Source: Escherichia coli (GTDB taxonomy: Bacteria; Pseudomonadota; Gammaproteobacteria; Enterobacterales; Enterobacteriaceae). From it: a stretch of DNA of 64,000 nt. Both the position numbers and the translations under genes were made by a program. Below the pieces are notes generated by a model. It had not been told where the DNA came from. It saw nothing but the letters and a program-made list of their open reading frames with translations, and did not search any database. Of the stretch, positions 47,197 through 48,844 are shown one piece after another. The stretch's first letter is position 1; each line of letters starts with the position of its first letter. Location of the stretch: NCBI RefSeq assembly GCF_003018115.1, contig NZ_CP027457.1; one strand, 5' to 3'.

Positions 47197-48405
47197 TCAG
47201 GCTGTCGCCTGAATCATTTCGGTGGGTTCCTGCTTCAACGGGCGGCCTGACTGCACCATCTCTCCACAGGCAAGAACGGCGTGCCCCGCCGCTAAAATGT
47301 TACGAGCGCCATTTACATCAGCGTTCGCTGTATATCCACATGCCTGGCATCTGAATTTACTTTGTGACAGGCGATTTTCTTTCGCTGTATGACCACAGCA
47401 CGCGCAACGCTGGCTTGTGTACGCTGGCGGAACAGCAAGCACCTGACCGCCACGCCAGAGCTGCTTGTACTCAAGCTGGCGGCGCATTTCATACCAGCCC
47501 TGATCCAGTATCGAACGGTTTAAACCTGATTTTGCCCGGACATTGCGCCCCGGCTGGCTGACCGTACCCGCTGCTGACTTTGACATGTTGCTGACCTTCA
47601 AATCCTCAATGACTATCATTGCGTGGTTTTTGCTGACGGTCGTTGTGACTTTGTGAAGGTAGTCCCTGCGGATATTTGCGATACAGGAATGCAGTCGCTG
47701 TATTTTGCGTTTCTGCTTCTGCCAGTTGTTGCTGAATTTGACCTTGCGGCTTAACTGTCGCTGAAGTCTCGCCAGCGTCTTCTGGTTTTTCTGAAAACTG
47801 TTTACAGGCTCAAAGACTGTGCCATCTGACAGCGTGGCGAGTTTAGCCACGCCAGCATCCAGCCCGACCATTGATGCTGAAGGGTGAGCCGGAGTGGATA
47901 CTTCACTTTCTGTCTGAATACTGATGTACCACTTACCGCAGGACTGGCTGACAGTGACATTTTTCACAACACCCGTGACCTGACGGCTATTCCGGTAGCG
48001 CATCCAGCCCAGTTTCGGCAGAAAAATACGGCTGTTTTCCTGATCGAGCTTAACGCCCTGCGGGTAGCGGAATGCATCATTCTGTCCCCGCTTTTTGAAT
48101 CGGGGAAAAGCAGCCCGCTTCCGGAAGAAGTTTTTGTAAGCCCGCTCAAGGTCTTTCAGTGACTGTTGCAATGGCTGTGACGGGGCATCTTTAAGCCATT
48201 GCGTTTCAGTGACATTTTTCCACTCAACCAGCCAGGAAGCCATTTTCCCGTAAGGGATGTATTTATTACCGGCCTCATGATTCTCATTCTGAAGCGCCAG
48301 AGCACGATTGAAAACGAAACGACATGCGCCTGCGAAGCGCCTCATTTCACGCTCCTGTTGACCACCGGGTCTTAACTGGAATTTAAATGCCTGTAGTCGT
48401 TTCAC
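47197..48405 (-). CDS. tnpB: TnpB (IS605 OrfB family, RNA-guided RuvC-like nuclease)
   Basis: 402-aa ORF with GTG start; RuvC-like motifs [20 protein letters not shown] and zinc finger CACCGH...CQACGY. Confidence 0.9.
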
Positions 48406-48412
48406 AGGCCAA

Positions 48413-48844
48413 ATGATACTTTGGTCTGTGAAAAAAGAAACCGATATCCGGCGTGGAAGGCATTGTGTTTTCCTGATGCATGTTCACCTGGTCTTTGTCA
48501 CCAAATACCGACGCCAGATTTTTGACCATGACGCGACAGAAAAACTACGCACTTACTTTTCAAAGGTATGTGCTGATTTTGAAGCTGAACTGGTTGAAAT
48601 GGATGGCGAACCAGATCACGTCCATTTGTTAATTAACTATCCTCCCAAACTGGCGATATCCAGTCTGGTAAACAGCCTCAAAGGCGTATCGGGTAGGTTA
48701 CTGCGACGAGATCGACCAGATATTGCAGTCAGGTATTACTACAAAGGCGTTTTGTGGAGTCCTGGCTATTTTGCCAGTAGCTGCGGAGGTGCGCCAATAT
48801 CCGCCATCCGTCAATACATTGAACAACAGCAAACACCTGGTTAG
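48413..48844 (+). CDS. tnpA: IS200/IS605 TnpA (HuH single-strand Y1 transposase)
   Basis: 143-aa ORF with KYRR, HuH motif HVHLL and catalytic-Tyr region [15 protein letters not shown]; true start may be the internal ATG at 48476. Confidence 0.85.

Follow-up and report, generated by a model that had tools for sequence, protein, structure and literature searches.

Here, we analysed the control region of IS609, an insertion sequence of the IS200/IS605 family, in a 64,000-nucleotide stretch of Escherichia coli DNA (RefSeq assembly GCF_003018115.1, contig NZ_CP027457.1; hereafter, the window), where the transposase gene tnpA and the RNA-guided endonuclease gene tnpB are divergently oriented and their annotated start codons nearly touch. 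A first-pass annotation, made from the sequence alone, had placed the start of tnpB at GTG 48405 (minus strand) and that of the longest tnpA frame at ATG 48413 (plus strand), and both coordinates are confirmed in the sequence. Our comparison with relatives of the element suggests, with a probability that we put at roughly 0.65, that a shared promoter, bidirectional and leaderless and contained in a 22-bp spacer, is the best explanation for the tight spacing of the two genes, with positions 48403-48430 as the candidate central control region of the element. Taken literally, the distance of 8 bp is an artefact of choosing the longest open reading frame, but the IS609 subfamily does have tightly spaced starts. 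Thus, the question raised by the first-pass annotation, whether the proximity of the starts is a family trait or an annotation problem, has a divided answer: close spacing is conserved in homologues, but the conserved value is 22 bp, and it is the 8-bp figure that stems from annotation.

In the arrangement that we propose, tnpA would start at codon 48428, so that tnpA and tnpB would stand back to back, 22 bp apart, and a single 8-bp core in the spacer would hold a pair of -10 hexamers of the sigma-70 type that diverge and overlap. Each hexamer would be located 6-8 nt from the start codon of its gene, and the -35 positions would fall within the first codons of the opposite gene. Transcription would begin at the start codon, or no more than 1 nt away from it, giving rise to leaderless mRNAs that lack a Shine-Dalgarno sequence. 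Simultaneous occupation of the two overlapping -10 elements by RNA polymerase would probably be impossible. Furthermore, because a start codon without a Shine-Dalgarno sequence would be translated only at the 5' end of an mRNA, only transcripts from the element's own promoters, with a 5'-terminal start codon, would be translated, and read-through from outside would be silent.

Conserved start codons and a short spacer

The assignment of the two genes to the IS200/IS605-type tnpA and tnpB, made initially from the sequence alone, is borne out by Pfam domains and by identity to the K-12 protein InsQ. TnpA is a Y1 transposase of the HUH class that matches the Pfam Y1_Tnp model over residues 18-139 of the 143-aa frame (E = 3.1e-42), carries the HUH motif HVHLL and a C-terminal tyrosine (RQYIEQQ), and aligns with TnpA homologues in the PDB at E = 1e-20 to 3e-17. 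TnpB, which is 97.5% identical to InsQ, contains the HTH_OrfB_IS605 (residues 1-48), OrfB_IS605 and Cas12f1-like_TNB domains, the first of which begins at residue 1. The gap between the annotated starts amounts to seven bases (48406-48412). RefSeq, through PGAP, uses the same two starts in E. coli A30, and the start of K-12 insQ is likewise the same; the K-12 tnpA is annotated solely as the pseudogene yncK, of equivalent span.

To locate the starts by conservation, we fetched 80 loci with TnpA 69-96% identical to that of the window from one-genome-per-species contigs spanning Enterobacterales to Burkholderiales, Chromatiales and others, and placed both genes by tblastn; the counts for the control region refer to the 64 distinct control regions among these loci. 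The codon aligned to the window GTG at 48428 is ATG in 62 of the 64, the exceptions being the GTG codons of the window and of an Escherichia sp. copy. At the position aligned to the tnpB start 48405, ATG is found in 61/64, and the three GTG exceptions all belong to Escherichia. Many RefSeq orthologues of TnpA, including those from Proteus, Photorhabdus, Klebsiella, Yersinia and Xenorhabdus, are indeed annotated with a length of 138 aa, the first residues being MKNETD or MTKETD. Residue 11 of the 138-aa TnpA aligns with residue 11 of the native IS608 TnpA. The 15 nt that separate 48413 from 48428 contain 1-nt indels among the relatives and are, therefore, non-coding, and the ATG at 48413 corresponds to a T-to-G change within the conserved ATTATACT core. 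Judging from these alignments, ATG 48413 is probably not the ancestral start of tnpA. The 143-aa start given by RefSeq for IS609 TnpA, at odds with the 138-aa orthologues, is probably five codons too long, an error that gene finders favouring the longest open reading frame will reproduce.

Measured between the conserved starts, the spacer is 22 bp long in 30 loci, 23 bp in 17, 21 bp in 15, and 19 or 25 bp in one locus each. This narrow range holds down to 46% TnpB identity and exceeds what is expected by chance. The initial argument that separate promoters and ribosome-binding sites would not fit between the two starts survives the correction of the tnpA start: the conserved spacing of 22 bp is still too short.

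Candidate shared promoter core, transcription start and heptamer

The centre of the spacer is occupied by an 8-bp core (ATGATACT in the window, ATTATACT in most relatives) that can be read in both directions. In the window, it gives TATCAT on the minus strand (48418 to 48413), toward tnpB, and GATACT on the plus strand (48415-48420), toward tnpA, such that the two divergent -10 hexamers overlap by 4 bp. Across the 64 control regions, the tnpB-strand hexamer is most often TATAAT (31/64), followed by TATCAT (10) and TATGAT (8), and lies 6-7 nt before the tnpB start, and the tnpA-strand hexamer is TATACT in 27/64, TATAGT in 10 and CATACT in 8; in 55/64, a distance of 7 or 8 nt separates this hexamer from the tnpA ATG. 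The base preceding the start codon is a pyrimidine in all 64 cases for tnpA and in 59/64 for tnpB, which fits the usual preference for a pyrimidine at -1 and a purine at +1 of transcription start sites. Shine-Dalgarno-like 4-mers (GGAG, GAGG, AGGA, AAGG, GGGG) were found in none of the 64 relatives within positions -18 to -4 of either start.

Sequences resembling -35 elements accompany both hexamers. In most relatives, the tnpA-strand -10 is preceded, at a distance of 17-18 nt, by TTGAAG, TTGTAG or TTGGAG, with a best combined score of 9.5 of 12, and TTGTCA is located 17-18 nt upstream of the tnpB-strand -10 in beta- and gammaproteobacterial relatives, with scores of up to 11 of 12. The relatives' mean promoter scores are 7.9 and 8.5 of 12, and the window, with 6 (tnpA) and 7 (tnpB), is among the lowest of the 64. 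Three relatives (L072, L076 and L078), in which tnpA has a different upstream context and no divergent tnpB, carry TTGTCA-17-TATAAT-7-ATG or close variants of this arrangement. The overlapping sigma-70 promoter pattern is clear in the sequences of the relatives; the experimental support concerns the tnpB promoter only.

This support comes from the K-12 copy of IS609. The SMRT-Cappable-seq study of K-12 lists, in its Supplementary Data 2, an operon consisting of b1432 (insQ) alone, with a forward transcription start site at 1503656 (PMC6131387). We calibrated the coordinate convention of that table on 21 forward and 12 reverse start sites in the 100-150 kb portion of the genome. Of the forward entries, 81% list a pyrimidine, and in 71% a purine follows; this shows that the table counts forward positions from 0, and the insQ transcript starts at 1503657. 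This base is the G of the insQ GTG, with TATCAT located seven nt upstream (in the K-12 copy, not this strain), and hence the tnpB mRNA of K-12 IS609 is leaderless. The promoters of K-12 and the window differ by one base in the 7-nt discriminator, and the start of the tnpB transcript in the window is predicted at the equivalent base. Because of the position of the -10 hexamer 7-8 nt upstream of the start in most relatives and the full promoters of L072, L076 and L078, the tnpA mRNA is likely to be leaderless as well. The suggestion of the first-pass annotation that expression of the two genes is unusually coupled comes nearer to the evidence than its alternative, with a common 8-bp core, overlapping divergent -10 hexamers, no Shine-Dalgarno sequence and a K-12 tnpB transcript that starts on the start codon.

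Next to the core, the positions -7 to -1 before the tnpA start carry 1.7-1.9 bits each, except for position -3, which is T or C. The resulting heptamer, TTGGYCT (TTGGTCT in the window), is conserved to the same degree as the tnpA ATG itself. It is found also in an element on a Bifidobacterium longum plasmid with a TnpA only 52% identical, which shares the core and has a 23-bp spacer, and elements with a tnpA adjacent to the left end (LE) retain GGTCT. A search throughout the elements for a conserved complementary AGRCCAA that could serve as a pairing partner of TTGGYCT found none. A second copy of the heptamer is present inside tnpA, at 48488-48494 (CTGGTCT in the window), within the codons for H-L-V-F. 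This internal copy, about 70 nt into tnpA (about +63 in loci L003-L082), is encoded by frozen synonymous codons, with Leu TTG in 53/59 and Val GTC in 43/59.

Several observations weigh against the shared leaderless promoter. Foremost, the conservation of TTGGYCT goes far beyond the normal requirements of a promoter discriminator, and the heptamer could be transcribed or bound by something, implying a different mechanism; it is mainly because of this conservation that our confidence in a simple promoter upstream of tnpA is not higher. The -35-like hexamers sit in conserved codons, so that their conservation is confounded with that of the coding sequence. A scan of the window for consensus promoters and terminators found no promoter in the spacer; we attribute this to the hexamers of the window being too degenerate, the pattern being visible through the relatives only. 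The K-12 insQ start site comes from one published table, with the coordinate convention inferred in the present analysis. No start site for tnpA was found in the accessible start-site data, and the text of the Cappable-seq supplement (PMC4782308) gives no coordinates near IS609. Both starts of the window copy are GTG, so that the 5'-terminal AUG that would be present in nearly all of the relatives is absent here. Leaderless translation in E. coli strongly prefers AUG, and the GTG codons are, by this general knowledge, poor starts for it.

A more elaborate version of the shared promoter would make the 22 bp a single bidirectional module, in which each initiation event chooses either the transposase or the nuclease together with the guide-RNA precursor, read-through transcripts are untranslatable, and TTGGYCT is a dedicated cis-element. 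In such a module, the heptamer might set the start site, or bind an element-encoded or universal factor that tips the choice. We offer this extension tentatively and consider it doubtful in its entirety.

Alternative explanations and the Escherichia copies

The alternative that survives best, although we deem it improbable, holds that the tnpA start of Escherichia has moved upstream, so that a 143-aa TnpA would be translated from ATG 48413 on a leadered mRNA originating inside tnpB, with AGG (48406-48408) as a weak Shine-Dalgarno sequence; the coding regions would then truly be 7 bp apart. This ATG is in frame, is retained in the E. coli copies (K-12, A30 and the window) and is annotated as the start by RefSeq, and the conserved start has decayed to GTG in Escherichia. 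Moreover, orthologues from Salmonella (P0017) and Photorhabdus (P0021) also begin MILWS, that is, with the same in-frame upstream ATG, and the Escherichia-specific 7-mer AGGCCAA provides the AGG four nt before ATG 48413, a feature that counts against the shared leaderless promoter, too. However, ATG 48413 lies inside the shared -10 core and hence outside any transcript from the conserved promoter, and the scan of the window detected no promoter-like site upstream of it on the plus strand. In a leadered transcript, this codon would be located at the edge of a hairpin of -19 kcal/mol. The five additional residues are not conserved as coding sequence, given the 1-nt indels in relatives, and the copy from Escherichia sp. 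(L004) has the GTG start without the upstream ATG.

That hairpin belongs to a palindrome (48400-48433) that is specific to Escherichia and puts both GTG-AAA starts at mirror positions. For the plus strand, the RNA hairpin is predicted to fold at -19.1 kcal/mol (z -6.0), and for the minus strand at -15.4 kcal/mol (z -4.5). No other of the 64 has so strong a hairpin, the median of the relatives being -6.4 kcal/mol, and no equal of the 14-bp palindrome appeared in any of 10 Markov simulations of the window. It is conceivable, if quite unlikely, that the palindrome is itself the functional unit, either as an operator for a dimeric regulator or as an RNA hairpin with a coupling or blocking effect on the translation of both genes, with the spacing serving the palindrome. 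The 93% complementarity of the 14-bp arms, the mirrored start codons and the strength of the hairpins on both strands, not expected by chance, would agree with such a role, as would the partial start-to-start complementarity seen in some other clades, e.g., TCGCTGCAT...ATGAGCGA. Outside Escherichia, however, the tnpB-side arm varies and the typical hairpin is weak, and elements without the palindrome keep the spacing, which the palindrome can therefore not have caused; furthermore, each leaderless transcript would hold only six bases of one arm. For a hairpin conserved across the family as an RNA structure, which we also considered and rejected, the variable tnpB-side arm and the restriction of the strong palindrome to Escherichia are decisive. 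To our knowledge, no repressor or operator has been described for the IS609 control region.

The proposal of the first-pass annotation that tnpA starts at the internal ATG 48476, behind a conventional control region of about 70 bp, has next to no chance of being correct: it would make room for a promoter and a ribosome-binding site, and the codon is Met in 51/59 relatives, but the invariant residues G-R-H-C.F (G, R, H and F each in 59/59 relatives, C in 58/59), the beginning of the Y1_Tnp domain (residue 18 of the 143-aa frame, compared with codon 22 for this ATG) and the first residues aligned with solved TnpA structures (residues 11-16) all precede it, and the codons upstream of it are conserved at the amino-acid level, which is not expected of a non-coding leader.

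Returning to the shared leaderless promoter, the Escherichia copies look like attenuated versions of it, with GTG at both starts, a weakened -10 core, weakened -35 positions for the two genes and a lineage-specific palindrome that extends over both starts. Specifically, the core ATGATACT weakens both -10 hexamers, and the tnpA -35 position has CTG instead of TTG. The palindrome could bury both start codons in read-through transcripts. A read-through transcript spanning ydcL and insQ is listed in the K-12 SMRT-Cappable-seq table discussed above (PMC6131387); it covers the whole of tnpA in antisense as well as the central palindrome (L002, NC_000913.3 1502347-1504865). Attenuation of the E. coli copies fits the reported immobility of IS609, which accounted for none of the 758 new insertions in K-12 mutation-accumulation lines (PMC5009759).

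A second Escherichia-specific hairpin, GCCTGTGAAACGACTACAGGC (48389-48409, minus strand), lies across the tnpB GTG, in competition with the main palindrome, and is terminator-like by the promoter and terminator scan. The hairpin scan that scored the main palindrome detected four more near-perfect 14-bp hairpins in the window, at 4698-4733, 15775-15806, 37605-37640 and 62632-62663.

The element, its relatives and implications

The features of the element are collected in Table 1.

Table 1. Coordinates of IS609 and of its genes, starts and control elements in the window
Feature	Position	Strand	Remarks
Spacer between conserved starts, whole candidate control region	48406..48427		22 bp; conserved length in relatives
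Shared -10 core	48413..48420		8 bp, spacer centre; ATGATACT (ATTATACT in most relatives)
TTGGTCT heptamer adjoining conserved tnpA start	48421..48427	+	Nearly invariant in family
Putative tnpA promoter -35 position	48391..48396	+	Degenerate (CTGTAG; TTGnAG in relatives); within tnpB codons
Putative tnpB promoter -35 position	48436..48441	-	Degenerate (GTTTCT); within tnpA codons
Predicted tnpB transcription start	48405..48405	-	First base of GTG; leaderless mRNA, by K-12 mapping
tnpA from family-conserved start	48428..48844	+	138 aa; GTG here, ATG in 62/64 relatives
tnpA, longest frame	48413..48844	+	143 aa; ATG 48413
ATG of longest tnpA frame (annotated start)	48413..48415	+	Inside -10 core; ATT or other non-start in most relatives
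Internal ATG, rejected tnpA start	48476..48478	+	MHVHLVF...; codon 22 of 143-aa frame
tnpB (insQ-type RNA-guided endonuclease)	47197..48405	-	402 aa; GTG start 48405-48403
Escherichia-specific palindrome	48400..48433		TTTCACAGGCCAAA/tgatac/TTTGGTCTGTGAAA; 14-nt arms, 93% complementary
IS609 (IS200/IS605 family)	47154..48901		Insertion within ytfA pseudogene; base 48901 ambiguous, element or flank
Subterminal hairpin, tnpB-proximal end	47163..47184		TCCACGCCCTGAAGGACGTGGA; same-orientation repeat at opposite end
Subterminal hairpin, tnpA-proximal end	48865..48885		Extended inverted repeat 48855-48896

IS609 splits ytfA, a pseudogene of the TetR family located between ytfB and yjfZ. The same insertion is annotated in RefSeq genomes of O55:H7, O157:H7 and other E. 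coli, under the labels "RNA-guided endonuclease InsQ/TnpB" and "IS609 family transposase". Comparison with the empty ytfA site of K-12 (ctgatgtg|gataaacc) places the junctions at 47153|47154 and 48900/48901, without a target duplication. Altogether, 4836 of 5426 E. coli genomes contain a place that covers at least 80% of the query (the element and its flanks), and most of these places match the query at 95-99%. The ends are nearly identical to those of the 1748-bp IS609 annotated in K-12, with one base different in the 40-nt ends compared, and have the features of IS200/IS605 elements, namely, same-strand subterminal hairpins at both ends, no terminal inverted repeats and no target duplication. 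The flanking sequence on the tnpB-coding strand is GGTTTATC|CGGTG for the window copy and TTTTTATC|CGGTG for the K-12 copy; these flanks, together with the empty site, suggest TTTAT(C) as a possible target or transposon-associated motif (TAM)-like sequence.

A scan against Rfam produced no match above threshold; sub-threshold matches were confined to the 3' end of tnpB and the adjacent element end (47141-47324, minus strand), the expected place of the TnpB guide (omega) RNA, and included HgcC (23.5 bits, threshold 50), sot0042 and RAGATH-18. In some E. coli relatives, the tnpA stop codon TAG (48842-48844) is changed to CAG, resulting in a TnpA of 204-224 aa, and the frames extend into the element end and flank.

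The closest known counterpart, the K-12 IS609 (insQ/ydcM and yncK), is the same element, with the same gene order, divergence, GTG/GTG starts, ATGATACT core and ends. It differs in being inserted between ydcL and ydcO rather than in ytfA, in having one more mismatch in the palindrome and in having tnpA annotated as a pseudogene. IS200 of Salmonella, which encodes a transposase of the same family, is expressed at a very low level and is essentially immobile (PMC12594629, PMC5009759); its tnpA is transcribed from bp 40, which yields a structured 5' RNA (5'tnpA), and an antisense RNA, art200, is produced (PMC12594629). In IS609-type elements, by contrast, the spacer measures 22 bp, Shine-Dalgarno-like motifs are missing from the 18 nt upstream of either start and the tnpB mRNA begins on its start codon. 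Control of the IS200 type, by a structured leader, was not found in the IS609 family, which appears to have no leader and lacks a Shine-Dalgarno sequence and in which the Escherichia palindrome could act on read-through transcripts alone.

Leaderless mRNAs produced from compact divergent control regions are familiar from cI of phage lambda, transcribed from PRM beside PR, and from tetR of Tn1721. As in these cases, in IS609 the -10 hexamer lies about 7 nt from the start codon, a Shine-Dalgarno sequence is missing and the promoter of the divergent partner is close. Unlike in cI and tetR, however, leaderless expression seems to apply to both divergent genes of IS609, and the two -10 hexamers have 4 bp in common within one 8-bp core.

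Other divergent elements of the IS605 group, on E. coli IncF, Aeromonas and Vibrio plasmids (L084, L085 and L086), encode the same gene families, with TnpA about 51% identical, but their annotated starts are 57-64 bp apart; thus, the 22-bp design is a trait of the IS609 subfamily rather than a universal one. These plasmid elements share a motif of their own, CAGTGTGTAG, located 5-7 nt upstream of the tnpB start codon. Close relatives of the ISDra2 TnpA, in Deinococcus sp. QL22 and Nostoc, are homologous Y1 transposases (PDB alignments at E of about 1e-17 to 1e-19) but belong to elements in which tnpA and tnpB are co-directional and overlapping, with no back-to-back control region. A divergent gene order, which we had expected for ISDra2, was not found in these relatives.

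IS609 is an element described previously, and leaderless mRNAs and overlapping divergent promoters are also known as kinds of arrangement. Our search of the literature on IS609 and on insQ, yncK and ydcM returned nothing on expression, and a link between leaderless expression and tnpA or tnpB of the IS605 family (including ydcM and insQ) was not found in the searchable literature, which is no proof of novelty.

Genes of TnpB elements are among the most abundant known and are ancestors of Cas12, and the balance between the transposase, on the one hand, and the nuclease with its guide RNA, on the other hand, has been little studied. If the shared leaderless promoter is confirmed, a conserved 22-bp two-way promoter without ribosome-binding sites would explain the compactness of the element, and IS609 could ignore transcription entering from neighbouring genes.

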